DNA from: Selenomonadaceae bacterium
GTDB lineage: Bacteria; Bacillota; Negativicutes; Selenomonadales; Selenomonadaceae
Direction of reading: 5' to 3'
DNA length: 64,000 bases
Assembly (NCBI GenBank): GCA_024698045.1
Contig: JAILRS010000033.1
Location: 1,159 to 65,158 of the forward strand
In this document: positions 5,434 to 58,948 of the stretch, one piece after another
Layout of the letters: each line of letters opens with the position of its first letter
How positions within the stretch are numbered: position 1 is the stretch's first letter
Position numbers and translations under genes: made by a program
The notes under the pieces: generated by a model
The model's input: the letters and a program-made list of their open reading frames with translations, nothing else
Databases searched by the model: none
What the model was told of the DNA's origin: nothing

Positions 5434-6126
5434 GTGTTCATTAAAAAATTTTTTGGTTTAATGTTGCTGGTGGCGTTAATAATTTTGCCGCAAAACGTTT
5501 CTGCGGAGAAAACAGATTGGTTTGACAGGAATTTCAACTTTCATCGCATGAGAAACGTCATAGTTTTCAATGTCGACTTCAATCAGAATTATAATTCGGT
5601 CGACGCGTTAAACATGAGAGACACTTACTACAAGAACGCACGAAAGTTAAAATGCAACATCATCACGGAAGAAGAGGCACGGCGCAGTATCGGTTATCAA
5701 ATCGGAATGGATTTGGAATCAATGGCGCGATCCAATCCGTTGGGCGCAAGACAAGTCATCATGGAGAACGCTTATAACATCGCCGACGGTTGGGTGACGG
5801 CAACTGTTGACACTTGGGAAAATACTTATTACATTGAACCCGAGCGAACTGTTTGGGAGCAAAGACGCGAAACTCGTACCTATTACGACGCATGGGGACA
5901 ACGCCGCGAAGAAGTTTATTACGTGCAAGTGCCGGTTACTTATCCTCCGCGCCGCGTCGACGTTTCCACCATTCAGATGACTTTGCAGCTGTTTGACGCA
6001 AGGAGTGGCGCACAGGTTTTCAGTCGCAAAGATGTTCGCGATCGTGAAGATTATCAGGCACAAAAAGGTATGTACGGCAGAATCACGAATTCATTCTTTG
6101 AGGACGTCGGCAAGAAAATTAAATGA
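5434..6126 (+). CDS. secreted protein of unknown function; paralog of 7219..7926
   Basis: GTG start after GGAGGTGG. Signal peptide ...PQNVSA|EKTDW. Shares AEK(T/S)DW, N(F/Y)NF, ITE(E/D)EA, (V/I)MxNA(Y/W)xIAD, (D/E)TWxN and YYD..G blocks with the 7219 ORF. Confidence 0.75.
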   Translation: MFIKKFFGLMLLVALIILPQNVSAEKTDWFDRNFNFHRMRNVIVFNVDFNQNYNSVDALNMRDTYYKNARKLKCNIITEEEARRSIGYQIGMDLESMARSNPLGARQVIMENAYNIADGWVTATVDTWENTYYIEPERTVWEQRRETRTYYDAWGQRREEVYYVQVPVTYPPRRVDVSTIQMTLQLFDARSGAQVFSRKDVRDREDYQAQKGMYGRITNSFFEDVGKKIK

Positions 6127-24127: not shown

Positions 24128-25495
24128 ATGGACGCAGTGATTTTATCGCGATTGCAGTTCGCGATAACCACAATCTATCATTTTCTTTTCGTGCCCGTGA
24201 CGTTGGGTCTTTCAATCTTCGTCGCACTGCTTGAATTGTGGTATGTCAACAGTGACAGTTACTACGAACGATTGAAACTCAAACGGCTTGTAAAATTTTT
24301 CGGGACAATCTTCCTGATAAATTTCGCAATGGGTGTCGTAACCGGTATCGTGCAAGAATTTCATTTCGGCATGAACTGGTCGGAATACTCTCGATTCATG
24401 GGCGATATCTTCGGTGCGCCTCTTGCCTTGGAGGCTCTTACGGCTTTCTTCCTTGAATCAACTTTTATCGGGCTGTGGATTTTCGGCTGGGATAAGTTGA
24501 GCGAAAAAATGCATTGCCTTTGCATTTGGATTGTAGCCTTTGGCAGTAATTTATCAGCCTTTTGGATTCTCGTCGCCAATTCTTTCATGCAACACCCTGT
24601 AGGCTACGAAATTTCAGACGGGCGTGCGGTCATGACGAGTTTCTTTGACTTGGTTACTAATCCCTACGTTTTGGGCGAATATTTCCATGCATTGTTCGCA
24701 GGAATCACTACCGCGGGATTTTTGGTTATCGTGGTCAGCGCGTGGAAAATCGCGACGGATGATATTTCACGCGAAATGTTTGTCCGTACATTGCGCCGCG
24801 CGGTTCTGTTTACCTTCTTCGGCTTATTGGGCGTCATGGGTTCCGGTCACATGCACGCGCAATATCTTGCCGAAGCCAATCCGATGAAGTTGGCATCTTT
24901 TGAAGCTCTTTGGGAGACAGAAAATCCTGCGCCGTTCGCAATCGTAGCCGATATCAATCAAAAAGAAGGTCGCAATGATTTTGAAATCACAATCCCCAAA
25001 ATGTTTACGTTCATGGTGCATAATTCTTTCAGCGGCGAAGTAAAAGGTATCAACGATTTGCAAAATGAGGCAGTTGAAAAATACGGTAGCGGTTATTATA
25101 TCCCGAATGATGTGCGCGGTATGTTTTGGAGCTTCCGCATAATGATTGCCACGGGCGGATTGATGATGCTGGTTGTCTTCGCAATGTGGTTCGTTTCGTT
25201 TTTAAAGCGCAAGTATATCAACGATTACAAATGTTACCTGAAGATGATGCCGATACTTTTGCCGATTCCGTTTATCGCAAATTCTGTCGGCTGGTATATC
25301 GCCGAGGCAGGTCGTCAACCGTGGATAGTGGTTGGTCTGCAGAAAACCGCAGTAGCCGTCAGCCCGAATTTATCCGCCGAAGAAGTTTGGTTGACTATGA
25401 TTGGTTTCACGATAATTTATTTGGCATTGGCTGTCCTCGCGGTTTTCGCGGCGGTCAAATTTATTCGGCGCACAAAAATTACGGCGGAAGAATGA
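24128..25495 (+). CDS. cydA: cytochrome bd-type quinol oxidase subunit I
   Basis: LSRLQFAITTIYHFLFVPVTLGL...EFHFGMNWS...GRQPW(I)V are CydA signatures. 455 aa. Confidence 0.96.
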   Translation: MDAVILSRLQFAITTIYHFLFVPVTLGLSIFVALLELWYVNSDSYYERLKLKRLVKFFGTIFLINFAMGVVTGIVQEFHFGMNWSEYSRFMGDIFGAPLALEALTAFFLESTFIGLWIFGWDKLSEKMHCLCIWIVAFGSNLSAFWILVANSFMQHPVGYEISDGRAVMTSFFDLVTNPYVLGEYFHALFAGITTAGFLVIVVSAWKIATDDISREMFVRTLRRAVLFTFFGLLGVMGSGHMHAQYLAEANPMKLASFEALWETENPAPFAIVADINQKEGRNDFEITIPKMFTFMVHNSFSGEVKGINDLQNEAVEKYGSGYYIPNDVRGMFWSFRIMIATGGLMMLVVFAMWFVSFLKRKYINDYKCYLKMMPILLPIPFIANSVGWYIAEAGRQPWIVVGLQKTAVAVSPNLSAEEVWLTMIGFTIIYLALAVLAVFAAVKFIRRTKITAEE

Positions 25496-54390: not shown

Positions 54391-55218
54391 TCAGCAGTTA
54401 CCGGTATAAACGAAATTTAAATGACGTTTAGCGACCGCGACAAGTTCGTAAATTTTTTCAACGGGTGTGGGCGGTAAATTCCTAACCTTGTAGCGCGGAA
54501 AAAATCGACTGATGTGTAGCGGAATATCTTCGGAAATACTTGCCAACCATTTTGCTTCGGCGTCCATATCTTCGGGCGAATCGTTCATATTCGGCACAAT
54601 CAAGCTCGTTACTTCAACGTGACAACTCTGCGCAGAAAGTTCAATCGTCCGTAAAACCGTCTCGAAATTTCCGCCCAACGTATCATAAATTTTTTGACTG
54701 TAACCTTTCAAATCAATATTCATAGCGTCAATCAGCGGCAGAATTTTTTTCAGTGCGGCAGGTGCGACAGTCCCGTTGGTCACGAGGACACTTTTTAAGC
54801 CGCAGGATTTCAACAGAGCCGAAGTATCGCGAACAAATTCGTAGCCGATAAACGGTTCATTGTAAGTAAAAGCAATCCCGATATTTCCCTGCGCCGTCAA
54901 TTCTTCGGCAAGCGCGACTAATTGTTCGGGCATGACCTTGCGCGTCGGAAAGGTTGAATCAGCCATAGAAATTTCATGGTTTTGACAGAAAGGACAGTTG
55001 AGATTACAACCGAAACTGCCGACCGACAAAATTTTACTGCCCGGAAAAAATTTATACAGTGGTTTCTTCTCAATCGGATCCAAGGCAATCGAAGTCAATT
55101 CGCCGTAATTAAGCGGAATAATTTTATCGCCGTCATTCATTCGCGCCCGACATTTGCCTACTTCGCCGCGTTCTATTCGACAATGATGCGGACATATCTC
55201 GCAAGTTAAAGCCGTCAT
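54391..55218 (-). CDS. radical SAM enzyme of the PflA/AmrS-like (COG1180) activase group
   Basis: CEICPHHCRIERGEVGKCRARMN...DPIEKKPLYKFFPG...GCNLNCPFCQNHEIS (CxxxCxxC)...RFFPRYK...VYTGN. Divergent from nrdD. Not the canonical short NrdG layout. Confidence 0.8.
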   Translation of the reverse strand: MTALTCEICPHHCRIERGEVGKCRARMNDGDKIIPLNYGELTSIALDPIEKKPLYKFFPGSKILSVGSFGCNLNCPFCQNHEISMADSTFPTRKVMPEQLVALAEELTAQGNIGIAFTYNEPFIGYEFVRDTSALLKSCGLKSVLVTNGTVAPAALKKILPLIDAMNIDLKGYSQKIYDTLGGNFETVLRTIELSAQSCHVEVTSLIVPNMNDSPEDMDAEAKWLASISEDIPLHISRFFPRYKVRNLPPTPVEKIYELVAVAKRHLNFVYTGNC

Positions 55219-55369: not shown

Positions 55370-55387
55370 ATGTTAAGATGTTCACAA
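55370..55387 (+). promoter_or_regulatory. possible Rex-type operator overlapping the nrdD -35
   Basis: ATGTTAA GATG TTCACAA versus the Rex consensus TTGTGAA-N4-TTCACAA. The right half is perfect; the left half has 2 mismatches. Confidence 0.3.
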
Positions 55388-55409
55388 AAACATTTTCGTT
55401 TGATATAAT
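55381..55409 (+). promoter_or_regulatory. sigma-70-type promoter of nrdD
   Basis: TTCACA (55381-55386), 17 nt spacer, TATAAT (55404-55409), preceded by TGA (extended -10). Confidence 0.55.
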
Positions 55410-55504: not shown

Positions 55505-57691
55505 ATGTTGAATCTGGCCAAAGTTCGGAAACGTTCGGGGCAACGAGTTTCCTACGACCGCGAAAAAATTTACAATGCAATCGTAGGTGCAAACCGTGAC
55601 GCATCGACACCTGCCGACAGGCTTTCAACAGAGGACATCGAAGTTGTCACCAATTCTGTCGAGCAAGCTATTGCCGATAACGAAATTGTCGGCGTCGAAG
55701 CGATTCAAGATCAAGTAGAGAAAGCCCTCATGGCTCACGGTTTTTTTGATGTTGCCAAACAATTTATTGTCTATCGTCAAAAACATACTCAACGACGAGC
55801 CGCGCAGAAAAAATTGATGGCTACTTACCGCGATATCTTTTTTGCCGATTCCGTCGATATCGATTTGAAACGCGATAATGCTAACATCAACACAGATGCG
55901 TCAATGGGTATCATGCTCAAATTGGGCGCGGAAAGTTCCAAGTATTTTGTCGATAACTACGTTTTGCCCGAGGAATTTGCTCAAGCCGACAAAGATAATT
56001 GGATTCATATTCACGACAAAGATTTTTCGCTGATAACTTTCAACTGCTGTCAAATCGATTTGCTGAAACTTTTCCGCGGTGGTTTTTCTACAGGTCATGG
56101 ATTTTTGCGCGAACCTAATTCAATTCGTTCGTATGCTTCGCTTGCCTGTATCGCTATCCAAAGCAATCAGAATGATATGTTCGGCGGACAAAGTATCAAT
56201 GCCTTCGACTACGCAATGGCGGAAGGCGTAAAGAAATCTTTCAAGAAGGCGATTCGCGACGAAATAAGACGTGCTTGCGAATTTTGCGACATCAAACCGA
56301 ACGGCGATGTAGATTTTGACATCTGTACCTATTCCGAGTCGGGAAATCCTACCGCCGTCGAAAACCTTACCAAAGTTATCGGTTCTGCCAAAATCGCGGA
56401 AAAAATTTACAGTCAAGCTTGCCACGACGTCACCGAGGAAACTCATCAGGCAATGGAGGCTTTGATTCATAATTTCAATACGCTACACAGCCGCGCAGGT
56501 GCTCAAGTTCCCTTCAGCTCGATTAATTACGGAATGGATACCAGTCCCGAGGGGCGTCTCGTCACGCGCGAAGTACTTAACGCTATCGAGGCAGGTCTCG
56601 GCAATGGTGAAACTCCTATCTTCCCTATCAGTGTCTTTCAATTGAAGAGCGGCGTTAATTACAACGTCGACGATCCGAATTATGATTTATTCCGTCAGGC
56701 TTGCAAAGTCAGCGCGAAAAGATTGTTCCCCAACTTCGTAAATATCGACGCGCCTTATAATCTGCAATATTACAAGCCCGGCGATTATAACAGCTGCGTC
56801 GCGACAATGGGCTGCCGTACTCGTGTCATGTCGAATGTCAACGGGCGTGAAGAATCGGGCAGCCGCGGTAATTTTGCCTTCGTGACTATCAATCTGCCCA
56901 AACTTGCACTCGAGGCTAAAGGCAACCTTGAGGAGTTCTTTAACCTCTACGACAAATATATCACTATGTGCCACGATTACTTATTGTTGCGGCTGAAGAT
57001 TATCGAAGAGAAACACGTCTATAATTTCCCGTTCCTCATGGGGCAAGGAGTTTGGATGGATTCGGAAAAACTCAAGCCTTCCGATAAAATTAAAGACGTC
57101 CTCAAACATGCAAGTTATTCCGTAGGTTTTTGCGGTTTGGCAGAATGTCTTGTTGCGTTAATCGGCAAACATCACGGGCAGAGCGAAGAGGCGCAGGAAC
57201 TCGGATTGAAAATTGTCGGTCATCTGCGCGAACGTCTGGATAATTACGCCAAGGCGGAGAAAAGAAATTGGACGACCTTCGGGACGCCTGCCGAATCAAC
57301 TGCGGGACAATTCCAACGCTCCAACAGAAAAATTTACGGTAACATCAAAGGCGTAACCGACAGACCTTATATGACAAATTCAAGTCATGTGCCCGTTTAT
57401 TTCCCGATATGCGCAGGTGAAAAAATCAGAATCGAGGCACCGTATCACGCTCTTTGTAATGCCGGACATATTGCATACATCGAAATGGACGGAGATCCGA
57501 CGAAAAATTTATCGGCATTCGAGGCATTGGTTCGCGCCATGCATGACGCAAATATGGGTTACTTCTCGATAAATCATCCCGTCGACAGAGATCCTATTTG
57601 CGGTTACACCGGTATTATCGCCAATGAATGTCCGCACTGTCACCGTAAAGAAACCGAAATCGGAACTTTCCATCTCAGACGACTTAAATAA
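55505..57691 (+). CDS. nrdD: anaerobic ribonucleoside-triphosphate reductase (class III), reading frame ends before the glycyl-radical motif
   Basis: N-terminal ATP-cone (VRKRSGQRVSYDREKIYNAI) and an NrdD core throughout. The C-terminal zinc-ribbon region is PICGYTGIIANECPHCH, then RKETEIGTFHLRRLK-stop. The expected RR(V/I)(C/T)GY...NxGKxxE tail is absent. Confidence 0.9.
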   Translation: MLNLAKVRKRSGQRVSYDREKIYNAIVGANRDASTPADRLSTEDIEVVTNSVEQAIADNEIVGVEAIQDQVEKALMAHGFFDVAKQFIVYRQKHTQRRAAQKKLMATYRDIFFADSVDIDLKRDNANINTDASMGIMLKLGAESSKYFVDNYVLPEEFAQADKDNWIHIHDKDFSLITFNCCQIDLLKLFRGGFSTGHGFLREPNSIRSYASLACIAIQSNQNDMFGGQSINAFDYAMAEGVKKSFKKAIRDEIRRACEFCDIKPNGDVDFDICTYSESGNPTAVENLTKVIGSAKIAEKIYSQACHDVTEETHQAMEALIHNFNTLHSRAGAQVPFSSINYGMDTSPEGRLVTREVLNAIEAGLGNGETPIFPISVFQLKSGVNYNVDDPNYDLFRQACKVSAKRLFPNFVNIDAPYNLQYYKPGDYNSCVATMGCRTRVMSNVNGREESGSRGNFAFVTINLPKLALEAKGNLEEFFNLYDKYITMCHDYLLLRLKIIEEKHVYNFPFLMGQGVWMDSEKLKPSDKIKDVLKHASYSVGFCGLAECLVALIGKHHGQSEEAQELGLKIVGHLRERLDNYAKAEKRNWTTFGTPAESTAGQFQRSNRKIYGNIKGVTDRPYMTNSSHVPVYFPICAGEKIRIEAPYHALCNAGHIAYIEMDGDPTKNLSAFEALVRAMHDANMGYFSINHPVDRDPICGYTGIIANECPHCHRKETEIGTFHLRRLK

Positions 57692-57702
57692 AGGAGACGC
57701 CT

Positions 57703-58422
57703 ATGAATATCGTTAATTTAGGCGAACCTTCAAGAACTTACGGTAACGCAAATCAAATCGGTAATAAGCGAGTACCTTCCACAAGTTTTGCGAATTTATT
57801 GACTGAGACTGTTTTTGCCGATAGCCCAACAAAATCCGTACAAAGCTTTGAAGATATGTGGAAATCAAAATTTCCCGAAGCTAAATACCATGTAATGGAT
57901 GCGTCTAAAATCTCCCAAGGAGTATGGGAACGCAACGATTTTCCTTTTGAAAAATTCTTTGCCGAAAGCGTCGATGAATCAGTTTTGAATTGGCAACCTA
58001 CGGGAATTGAACCACAAATGAGCGATTCAAACGTTCAGACCAAATTAAATTCAACATTAGGGACAAAATCGATTCTTGTTCCGCCCGAATTAGATGAGAA
58101 GATGAAAACTGATTCAGAACTGTCCGAAAAGGTTATGGATAAAGTTAACGGTTTCATCGCAAATCATCCGACAAGACCGGGACGAGTACTGTCATACTTG
58201 ATTGCTTTGGATGGAAATGGTGATATCGCGCATTTTCGTGTAACGGGTGGCGGCGGACATATATCCGCTCCTTCTAAGGAAGAATTGCGACAATTCGAGG
58301 CAGAGCAAGCGGTCCAAAAAGAAAGAAAAGCTAAACTTGAGGCAAATCAAAATGTTGCAGATGAACGACGCCTTAAAGAGGCGGAAAATCTGCGCAGGAA
58401 AGATATAGAATCCGATTTTTGA
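57703..58422 (+). CDS. hypothetical protein, 239 aa
   Basis: Strong RBS AAAGGAGA 5 nt before the ATG. Contains FEDMWKSKFPEAKYHVMDASKISQGVWERNDFPFEKFF and a charged coiled-coil tail. No family recognised. Confidence 0.7.
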   Translation: MNIVNLGEPSRTYGNANQIGNKRVPSTSFANLLTETVFADSPTKSVQSFEDMWKSKFPEAKYHVMDASKISQGVWERNDFPFEKFFAESVDESVLNWQPTGIEPQMSDSNVQTKLNSTLGTKSILVPPELDEKMKTDSELSEKVMDKVNGFIANHPTRPGRVLSYLIALDGNGDIAHFRVTGGGGHISAPSKEELRQFEAEQAVQKERKAKLEANQNVADERRLKEAENLRRKDIESDF

Positions 58423-58471
58423 ATACCCGAACTTTTGTATTTGATGATACTTCAATAAATTGTATAATACG

Positions 58472-58500
58472 GAAGCCGCCCCGCAGGGGCGGCTTCTTCT
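58472..58500 (+). terminator. GC-rich hairpin after the 239 aa ORF
   Basis: GAAGCCGCCCC gca GGGGCGGCTTC followed by TTCT (weak U-tract). Confidence 0.5.
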
Positions 58501-58575
58501 CTCCCTATAAGTCGATATTAACATTGACTTGGGACGTTTATTAATGTTGAGGCCGCCCAAGGACGGGCGGCCGCC

Positions 58576-58666
58576 GGCAACGTGACGTTGCATCCTGAAA
58601 TCGCGACAAAGTTTTTGCCAACCGTAATTAATGACCGCGATTGTAACAATTACCAAGTTGACTTTG
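58576..58666. repeat. 91 nt structured module, copy 1
   Basis: ggcaacgtgacgttgcatcc..aaatcgcga.aaagtttttgcca...gtaattaatgaccgcg..tgtaa.....a.gttgactttg. About 87% identical to copy 2. Contains the 15 bp palindrome GCAACGTGACGTTGC (58577-58591). Confidence 0.85.
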
Positions 58667-58710
58667 AACACTTTCGATAACGACTGAAAGTGCCGCCACC
58701 GCAAAGAAAA

Positions 58711-58801
58711 GGCAACGTGACGTTGCATCCCAAAATCGCGATAAAGTTTTTGCCAGCTGTAATTAATGACCGCGCCTGTAAATTATAACAGGTTGACTTT
58801 G
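58711..58801. repeat. 91 nt structured module, copy 2
   Basis: Same module 135 nt downstream. Palindrome at 58712-58726. Confidence 0.85.
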
Positions 58802-58873
58802 TCTCCTTTTGTTAACCGAACGAAAGGAGCCCACTCACACTATTGATAATTTCCGATAAATACAATATGAATA

Positions 58874-58902
58874 TTGACTGAAAGGGCATGATTTGCTACA
58901 AT
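58874..58902 (+). promoter_or_regulatory. near-consensus sigma-70 promoter of the stp-pknB-rsgA operon
   Basis: TTGACT (58874-58879), 17 nt spacer, TACAAT (58897-58902). Confidence 0.6.
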
Positions 58903-58948
58903 CAATTAACAAAAAATTATTCGTCGGATTTATCAAGAGGTGACTGTC

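Follow-up and report, generated by a model that had tools for sequence, protein, structure and literature searches.

The stretch of DNA analysed here (hereafter the window) comprises 64,000 nucleotides (nt) of a Selenomonadaceae bacterium (GenBank assembly GCA_024698045.1, contig JAILRS010000033.1, positions 1,159 to 65,158 of the forward strand) and carries nrdD, a gene for the catalytic protein of a ribonucleotide reductase (RNR) belonging to class III, whose reading frame ends ahead of the glycyl radical motif. In this study, the end of the gene was compared with that of its homologues and with the small free-standing glycyl-radical proteins encoded in related genomes and phages. The features of the gene, in window coordinates, are as follows.

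55505 to 57691, plus strand: nrdD, large piece without tail, 728 amino acids (aa), matching PF13597, PF03477 and PRK07111, with the stop codon TAA at 57689-57691.
55520 to 55789, plus strand: ATP-cone, the allosteric on/off domain, residues 6-95 (PF03477, 65 bits).
56807 to 56818, plus strand: finger-loop motif MGCR, residues 435-438, aligned with the loop of Prevotella copri NrdD.
57590 to 57643, plus strand: predicted zinc-site segment DPICGYTGIIANECPHCH, residues 696-713, which remains part of the large piece (from the alignment; DPxC...CPxC pattern).
57662 to 57691, plus strand: C-terminal strand GTFHLRRLK, residues 720-728, together with the TAA; GTFHI.RL[KR] is conserved in the tail-less clade.

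Barrel homology to class III RNR and an ATP-cone, the domains expected of an RNR catalytic subunit, are both present in the window NrdD. The best solved relative was P. copri NrdD (8p23, E = 7e-165), to which window residues 6-713 were aligned. The NxN flap (sequence DNANIN), the catalytic barrel and the predicted zinc site are kept, and the segment ATMGCRTRV is identical in the window NrdD (Cys437) and in P. copri NrdD (Cys416). Cys437 is thus the predicted thiyl-radical cysteine, which would take the radical from the glycine. A finger-loop motif with a single Cys and a Met goes with formate-dependent enzymes (PMC9669993).

The C-terminus of the window NrdD reads ...DPICGYTGIIANECPHCHRKETEIGTFHLRRLK (also quoted as ...SINHPVDRDPICGYTGIIANECPHCHRKETEIGTFHLRRLK), and the stop codon lies 15 residues past the zinc ribbon. 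The match to Pfam NRDD (PF13597, 577 bits) covers profile positions 1-532 of 562, and that to NCBIfam PRK07111 (951 bits, cut-off 764) covers positions 3-711 of 746. Since both profile alignments end early, the C-terminal 30-35 or so profile positions, with the radical glycine, are absent. The alignment to 8p23 likewise ends at chain residue 703 of 743, ahead of the Gly711 loop. No R(V/I)xGY glycyl-radical motif occurs on the polypeptide, and none was found in the 64 kb window by a six-frame regular-expression scan or by phmmer with filters off and two genuine tails as queries. An earlier sequence-only reading of this DNA had reported that the 728 aa frame stops before the radical motif, that no downstream frame encodes a GY motif, and that the stop is directly followed by the ribosome-binding site (RBS) and ATG of an unrelated open reading frame (ORF); all three observations held, and the Pfam alignment that it had proposed as a check revealed no glycyl motif within the 728 aa.

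The zinc site reads D696-x2-C699...C709-x2-C712, then His713, where the canonical site is CxxC...CxxC; the canonical first Cys is thus Asp696 here (RDPIC, versus RCLDC in P. copri). The DPxC...CPxC pattern is also found in the tail-bearing relatives P0084, L022 and L156, and Asp as first zinc-site residue (RDP[IV]C) occurs throughout the PRK07111-like subfamily, in tail-bearing and tail-less members alike. The missing Cys, which the sequence-only reading had listed beside the truncation, was therefore correctly observed and coincidental as a hint to it, as it is a subfamily trait unrelated to the truncation. The RDP[IV]C pattern suggests a putative Asp/Cys3 or His-assisted metal site.

Homologues of the window NrdD were searched over a collection of 5.8 billion proteins, and the 120 closest matches listed (73-100% identity) were compared. 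The window end point is common to 118 of these 120, with no internal stops; the 118 tail-less C-termini read ...CPHCHRKE...G(T/K/S)FHI.R(L/M)(K/R), followed by 0-10 variable residues, without R.xGY. They come from rumen Selenomonadaceae and Quinella metagenome-assembled genomes (MAGs) and from the isolates Selenomonas sp. KH1T6, Selenomonas sp. AB3002 and S. montiformis, and all named Selenomonas, Quinella and Selenomonadaceae NrdD among the matches listed are tail-less. The only tail-bearing proteins among the 120 are P0083 and P0084, which continue ...FERIRR(V/I)TGYL.GDL..WN.AK.AEE.DRVKH. For a wider view, 1.84 billion 50%-identity representatives were searched exhaustively with HMMER and the 150 best matches were scored: 57 have R.xG[YFW] in their last 120 residues, about 55-60 end soon after the zinc CxxC without the motif, and the rest are fragments. 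Tail-less NrdD was found in Selenomonadaceae, in many Oscillospiraceae and Lachnospiraceae, and in many phages. A side observation on this subfamily concerns inteins: many close homologues (P0028, P0043, P0047, P0048, P0068-P0070, P0074, P0075, P0099 and representatives P0465-P0600) are 900-1800 aa long and carry the intein/homing-endonuclease domains PF14528, PF05204 and PF14890, and since matches to the window protein break into 2-5 stretches, inteins are very frequent in it.

The tail-less nrdD lies in at least four unrelated gene neighbourhoods.

Window: between purD with the AmrS-like gene and a 239 aa ORF.
Quinella sp. 3Q1: between a class A penicillin-binding protein gene and a PAP2 gene.
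Selenomonas sp. KH1T6: between sulfatase and AAA-ATPase genes.
A 90%-identical relative (P0010 lineage): between a gene of unknown function and an AddA-like helicase gene.

The missing C-terminus is found elsewhere as a separate protein. With a two-sequence profile of the P0083 and P0084 tails, at least 120 matches were listed, all of them free-standing proteins of 45-69 aa with the motif G.G[VI].FERIRRITGYL.G.L..WN.AK.AEE.DRVKH (example, MPVVSEKTRGKGVGFERIRRITGYLTGALNTWNSAKRAEEHDRVKHA). These small proteins match only the NrdD models PF13597, PRK07111, PRK14704 and TIGR02487; no match to the models of pyruvate formate-lyase (PFL) or to Gly_radical was obtained, and neither Pfam nor NCBIfam holds a dedicated family for them. 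They match PRK07111 at positions 709-745 of 746 and Pfam NRDD at 531-562 of 562, which are exactly the profile positions missing from the window NrdD. Furthermore, a profile of 55 small-protein sequences aligns to chain residues 701-738 of P. copri NrdD (KCGSHHIDKLQRITGYLVGTTDRWNSGKLAELHDRVTH, E = 3e-10), that is, to the Gly711 loop and the tail. The two pieces overlap by one strand, because the large piece keeps GTFHI.RLK where the small one has G.GVKFERIRR. GTFHLRRLK is a vestige that corresponds to the opening strand G.G[VI].FERIRR of the separate glycyl-radical protein.

Loci encoding the small protein were collected with a DNA pattern for a free-standing ORF in which GGAG...ATG was required. 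This pattern favours free-standing ORFs. It gave 77 viral loci, 71 of them with an ORF shorter than 160 codons, and at least 120 loci in GTDB genomes, the counts from the latter not being prevalence estimates. The usual cellular layout, seen in many Clostridia among the GTDB loci, is nrdD-large, a gap of 20-300 nt, an ORF of about 50 aa, and then nrdG. In the GTDB loci listed, a tail-less nrdD lies less than 600 nt upstream of 59 of the 69 short ORFs with enough flank, and nrdG lies less than 600 nt downstream of 78 of 88, often with a 4 nt overlap. Examples of the operon are found in Allofournierella massiliensis DSM 100451, in Scatolibacter rhodanostii and in the finished chromosome of Owariibacterium komagatae, and no full-length nrdD copy is present in the locus of this Clostridia operon. 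The large piece of Allofournierella ends ...CPRCGRRSGEALSPEKLDELRKKYPGVPTFCGLS, with a helical extension of about 30 residues, in contrast to the abrupt end in Selenomonadaceae.

Adjacent pieces were also found on phage-like contigs. In one of them (L009) the small gene starts 10 nt past a tail-less nrdD whose product ends ...CPLCGRRDGGPVSVQKLRQIRKNSL, while in four others (L005-L008) the small gene is followed by nrdG. A link to the window subtype was found on a 193 kb viral contig of a jumbo phage (L054), in which a 783-codon ORF, sharing 67% identity with residues 2-728 of the window NrdD, ends ...CPHCHRKEIEHKKISIKRDKSEV at the same end point and is followed 9 nt later by a 93 aa small gene of the long type described below.

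The two pieces also occur naturally fused, as in P0083 and P0084, which read ...CPHCHRKEDDGDIKFERIRRITGYL... across the junction. In a distance tree of the barrel region these two proteins are nested in the tail-less clade, as sister to the Quinella-like group that includes the window NrdD, with other tail-less lineages outside. The phage contig that encodes P0084 also has genes for Mu Gam, RusA, ThyX and Dam, and its 19.3 kb locus (about 10 kb upstream and 7 kb downstream) was found to contain no nrdG. Whether the tail of P0083 and P0084 reflects re-fusion or retention, the fusion suggests that this barrel works with this tail, and a phage of the P0084 type would then have to use the NrdG of its host.

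Several further observations were made on the phage and other small forms. In the viral loci L015-L091, nrdD-large lies within 600 nt of 14 of 49 short forms and nrdG of none of 54; it may be that some phages encode the radical piece alone. One phage small form that recurs is 91 aa long and starts MDFHCWNEEGC... In the cultured Eggerthella phage EL753P1 (L222, OP172808.1; 647-4090) the tail-less nrdD ends ...CPQCHRKEFEAVPEEYRDMVDEIRKSGMR, and the small ORF reads ...GEGVGFERIRRI, a stop, and then, in another frame, TTGYLTGSADRWNDAKKAELRDRVKH, owing to a 5-nt insertion (TGACC) that falls precisely on the codons for RRITGY; the insertion may be a sequencing error, may inactivate the gene or may point to recoding. 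Free-standing glycyl-radical ORFs were found outside Firmicutes in Candidatus Nanosyncoccus (L110, L165), Saccharibacteria (L115) and Mailhella/Desulfovibrionaceae (L097, L117, L157, L158, L182). Those of Patescibacteria have a different N-terminal extension, which is helical and about 90 aa long, and those of Desulfovibrionaceae have Cys-rich tails (...KDCICKH).

In the Selenomonadaceae themselves, the corresponding protein is a conserved one of 94-95 aa with the C-terminus KFERIRRITGYLVGT.DRWN.AK..EEHDRVKH (example, MIVNGIDVTVTGVPDISEHEIENYIAYVHENTQEPLSSLHISAAENGQVELGYELRTQKFERIRRITGYLVGTTDRWNNAKRMEEHDRVKHGLQH). Its gene was located in the following genomes.

S. flueggei ATCC 43531 (L173): long small gene at 5732-6016.
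A Selenomonadaceae MAG (L175): long small gene.
A rumen 'Veillonellaceae' MAG (L209): long small gene.

With a profile of these three proteins at least 120 clusters of 92-129 aa were obtained, the named ones being from Selenomonas, Anaerovibrio and Selenomonadaceae. In the long form, about 57 residues make up an N-terminal beta-alpha-beta-beta domain, after which comes KFERIRRITG(68)YLVGT.DRWN.AK..EEHDRVKH, and the invariant residues in a 55-member alignment include F60, E61, R64, R65, I66, T67, G68, Y69, W77, N78, K81, E84, E85, R88, K90 and H91. One member in RefSeq (WP_075430526.1, 94 aa, S. ruminantium/GACV-9) is named 'anaerobic ribonucleoside-triphosphate reductase', and many MAG annotations read 'hypothetical protein'.

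The long small gene lies 3' of an MscS gene, in a different locus from the tail-less nrdD. In S. flueggei, in contigs of the S. ruminantium GACV-9 type and in several rumen contigs it is followed after 0-100 nt by nrdG, whose product of 166-175 aa passes the NrdG equivalog TIGR02491 (155 and 139 bits, cut-off 126); in one rumen lineage the small gene stands alone. The surroundings, with deoC, phosphopentomutase, Usp and threonine dehydratase genes, are chromosomal and not those of a prophage. Two palindromes resembling NrdR boxes (e.g. AACAATATATAGTGT, CCATACATATTGTAT) lie at the small-gene promoter, where they flank the -35 element and overlap the -10 element, and such pairs were found 5' of the small gene in six loci (L212 (4840-5000), L209, L220, L221, L173 and L175). 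Farther 5' of this promoter, several copies of DnaA-box-like sequences (TGTGGATAA/TTATCCACA) were observed.

Taken together, the analysis establishes that nrdD is truncated and that the truncation is conserved. It also establishes that a conserved small protein exists which complements the large piece exactly, that its gene is linked to nrdG and, in other genomes, to a tail-less nrdD, and that both pieces occur naturally fused. On these grounds, which are those of sequence comparison, the window NrdD is probably the large chain of a class III RNR made in two pieces, to which the glycyl radical is supplied in trans, and we hold this with good confidence. Supply of the radical domain in trans was among the explanations offered by the sequence-only reading and is now supported by the free-standing proteins encoded beside nrdG, by their exact complementarity and by their adjacency to tail-less nrdD elsewhere; its further suggestion of an undescribed NrdD variant turned out to be the same finding seen from the literature side, as no description was found.

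Several points weigh against this assignment. Neither the small gene nor nrdG was found in the 64 kb window by tblastn with the 95 aa protein and NrdG, the only match to NrdG there being a weak one (E = 0.027) to the AmrS-like gene; for this genome, the presence of both is therefore inferred from relatives. No Selenomonadaceae assembly with both a tail-less nrdD and the small gene was found by comparison of accession numbers and context look-ups. The small gene and the window nrdD are not obviously co-regulated, because tandem NrdR boxes precede the small gene and no NrdR box was found upstream of the window nrdD. The Quinella orthologue has none either, and one strong box precedes nrdD-large of KH1T6. 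The AlphaFold2 model of the small protein has a mean predicted local distance difference test score of 67, moderate for the N-terminal domain (about 75-80) and low for the glycyl segment, and a Foldseek search of the fold against the PDB gave nothing below E = 0.09. Finally, a second full-length NrdD or another RNR class may be encoded elsewhere in these genomes.

In the proposed mechanism, NrdG with S-adenosylmethionine would take a hydrogen from Gly68 of the small protein, whose C-terminal loop would then enter the barrel of the large piece at the site occupied by the attached loop in one-piece enzymes. The glycyl radical would pass to Cys437, and nucleotide reduction would proceed as in canonical NrdD, probably with formate as the reductant. 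In P. copri NrdD, regulation by the ATP-cone acts through the mobility of the glycyl domain; since the ATP-cone and the N.N flap (DNANIN) are present, control by dATP/ATP through glycyl-domain mobility may persist in the window NrdD. It is our conjecture that the N-terminal domain of the long form may replace the helical extension of about 30 residues seen in large pieces that are paired with the short form.

A more speculative extension, which we consider possible but rather doubtful, is that the small protein is a diffusible and replaceable 'radical cartridge', which would be loaded by NrdG off the enzyme, plug into the tail-less subunit and be discarded after cleavage by oxygen, with phage cartridges plugging into the host enzyme. 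If this were true, oxygen would cost a cartridge of about 10 kDa instead of an enzyme of 80 kDa, and a phage that carried only the small gene would boost the supply of deoxyribonucleoside triphosphates (dNTPs) through the host enzyme. It would also be the first autonomous glycyl-radical cofactor beyond PFL and the first obligately two-piece glycyl radical enzyme.

The promoter and the neighbours of nrdD in the window are listed below.

54391 to 55218, minus strand: AmmeMemoRadiSam-type radical SAM protein, 275 aa (TIGR04337, 241.7 bits, cut-off 220).
55381 to 55409, plus strand: likely nrdD promoter, TTCACA, 17 nt spacer, TG-TATAAT, about 95 nt 5' of the ATG.
57703 to 58422, plus strand: 239 aa ORF with AGGAGA RBS and ATG at 57703, 12 nt past the nrdD stop.

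The promoter candidate agrees with the consensus at 11 of 12 positions, has the extended -10 TG and is the best match of the region; the Quinella nrdD orthologue is preceded by a similar TTCACA...GATATAAT element. The 239 aa ORF had no Pfam or NCBIfam match and is absent beside nrdD in three other lineages. It is probably co-transcribed with nrdD, as its RBS is good and nothing resembling a terminator separates the two. As it contains the superficially glycyl-like FRVTGGGGH, it was considered as a trans radical domain and rejected, since it has no family match and is not a conserved neighbour. The following 520 nt or so (58423-58939) have no long plus-strand ORF ahead of a PP2C phosphatase gene; promoter-like sites at 58441-58468 and 58874-58902 and a minus-strand terminator-like hairpin at 58726-58712 were observed there, with no Rfam match. 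The radical SAM gene stands alone between purD and nrdD (an AMMECR1 or Memo partner was not searched for); it is not NrdG, and its adjacency to nrdD is not kept in relatives. The sequence-only reading had rightly described it as AmrS-like and not a canonical nrdG; its place as the nearby activase candidate was coincidental, and as activase it was rejected, since the adjacency is not conserved and the protein passes the threshold of another family. Elsewhere in the window, a gene for cytochrome bd oxidase subunit I (24128-25495, plus strand; PF01654, 511 bits) was observed in what is presumed to be a strict rumen anaerobe, which could bear on the oxygen exposure of a glycyl radical enzyme.

Among other explanations, the one that survives best is that the tail-less protein is an inactive or regulatory paralogue, dNTPs being made by a full-length NrdD, by NrdJ or by a class I enzyme, and that the small protein is a spare part for an oxygen-cleaved enzyme in the manner of YfiD. 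In Selenomonadaceae the tail-less nrdD lies apart from both the small gene and nrdG, which agrees with this, and YfiD provides a precedent for a repair role. However, the protein retains an intact ATP-cone and intact catalytic motifs, every NrdD named as Selenomonas, Quinella or Selenomonadaceae among the matches listed is tail-less, and the large/small/nrdG operon of Clostridia has no full-length copy in its locus. In addition, no other RNR was found in the window among ten scanned ORFs of 430-645 aa (LepA, PBP2, DctM, decarboxylase, ClC, pyruvate kinase, NlpC/P60, aldehyde dehydrogenase, CydA and an SPFH protein), a scan that included every ORF of at least 590 aa except nrdD and a Ser/Thr kinase. 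We therefore consider the paralogue explanation unlikely.

It is still less probable that no glycyl radical is involved, and that the AmmeMemoRadiSam-like enzyme (54391-55218) makes the cysteinyl radical directly or via another carrier. Its gene divergently adjoins nrdD and its product is weakly similar to glycyl-radical activases, but the adjacency is absent in Quinella 3Q1, KH1T6 and the P0010 lineage, the TIGR04337 match assigns the protein to a different system, and a canonical NrdG with a cognate glycyl protein exists in Selenomonadaceae.

The sequence-only reading had also offered a pseudogene, in which the inserted 57.7-58.8 kb segment had decapitated nrdD, as a possible explanation. 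The absent glycyl motif and the unrelated ORF 12 nt past the stop fit this proposal, or a nonsense mutation in a decaying gene. The comparison of orthologous loci that had been suggested as a check spoke against it: the tail-less end is conserved in more than 100 sequence clusters and in four neighbourhoods, and the segment, with its 239 aa ORF, is absent from the others. Moreover, internal stops are absent from the homologues, and the terminal strand GTFHI.RLK is constrained. Tail-less proteins also make up about 55-60 of the 150 closest representatives at 50% identity, and the sole intact relatives among the matches listed are two phage-type proteins nested within the tail-less clade. Because the end point is conserved and the contexts are unrelated, an origin of the stop in faulty assembly, in decapitation by this segment or in a private nonsense mutation is excluded, and a decaying pseudogene is highly improbable.

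Just as improbable is that a single mature chain is restored by an intron, intein trans-splicing, a frameshift or readthrough. T4 nrdD contains a group I intron, many homologues of the window NrdD contain inteins, and one phage small ORF is frameshifted, all of which may be counted for such joining. Nevertheless, no frame downstream in the window encodes the tail, the small genes have their own RBS, ATG and N-terminal extension or domain, the duplicate strand is kept on the large piece, and in Selenomonadaceae the two genes lie in different loci. At the Rfam gathering threshold, moreover, no intron or other match was found in the window, and in seven related loci only tRNAs were found, with nothing between the genes. 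That a sequencing or assembly error made the stop, for which nothing speaks beyond the unusual end, can practically be dismissed, since more than 100 independent assemblies, including isolate genomes, have the same end point.

The preferred reading, a two-piece NrdD with the radical supplied in trans, has consequences beyond this genome. The textbook view, in which every described class III RNR stores the radical on its own C-terminus, may not hold, and the data point to a substantial part of one NrdD subfamily in which a separate small protein carries the radical loop. Such a naturally split NrdD raises the questions of how the activase recognizes a free loop, how the loop docks in the barrel and how the ATP-cone controls an untethered domain. 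For annotation, a tail-less nrdD should not be flagged as a pseudogene, and the ORFs of 50-95 aa, which are often missed or called 'hypothetical protein', should be annotated; in RNR inventories of gut and rumen anaerobes and of phages, both parts need to be counted. A full-text literature search, in which subscription journals were thinly covered, brought up no report of an NrdD that is split, truncated or bipartite or has an autonomous cofactor, so the two-piece NrdD is apparently widespread yet unrecognised, with the caveat on novelty that RefSeq already names some small proteins after NrdD.

One of the known systems nearest to the one described here is canonical class III RNR (NrdD with NrdG, as in E. 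coli, phage T4 and P. copri 8p23). The ATP-cone, the NxN flap, the 10-stranded barrel, the MGCR loop and the predicted zinc site are shared, the C-terminus of the small protein is homologous to the Gly711 loop and the C-terminal tail, and the activase of Selenomonadaceae is a canonical NrdG. The difference is that the glycyl-radical domain is cut, so that the zinc site stays on the large chain and the radical loop with the tail is a separate gene product, which leaves the large piece without a defining feature of NrdD, the radical glycine on its own chain; instead of the canonical nrdDG operon, the Selenomonadaceae genes are dispersed or paired as small gene and nrdG.

A catalytic chain made as two separately translated, associating polypeptides is also known for the class II RNR NrdJa/NrdJb of Pseudomonas aeruginosa (PMC4520616). 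It differs in being B12-dependent, in its split point, in having no radical-storing piece and in its adjacent genes.

Another close parallel is GrcA (YfiD) of E. coli and Y06I of phage T4, which are likewise small free-standing glycyl-loop proteins. In both systems the cognate radical SAM activase presumably acts on the small protein, which is then presumed to insert into a large subunit without the loop, and the two pieces have an overlapping strand in common; phages encode such proteins as well. PFL-AE activates free-standing YfiD/GrcA, which complements cleaved PFL, and the pieces share an overlapping strand (PMC13450708, PMC8683613). A review of glycyl radical enzymes from June 2026 states that formate lyases (PFL) are the only ones with known spare-part proteins, and that the existence of such proteins for other glycyl radical enzymes is 'yet to be determined'. 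GrcA is homologous to the C-terminus of PFL and repairs a genetically full-length, oxygen-cleaved enzyme, whereas the small protein described here is homologous to the C-terminus of NrdD and its partner gene is itself tail-less. Being NrdD-derived, the small proteins do not belong to the GrcA family; a partner gene that never encodes the loop would make the small protein an obligate subunit, although a repair role may apply to the phage copies. The two-piece system thus combines canonical NrdD/NrdG with the GrcA/YfiD principle.

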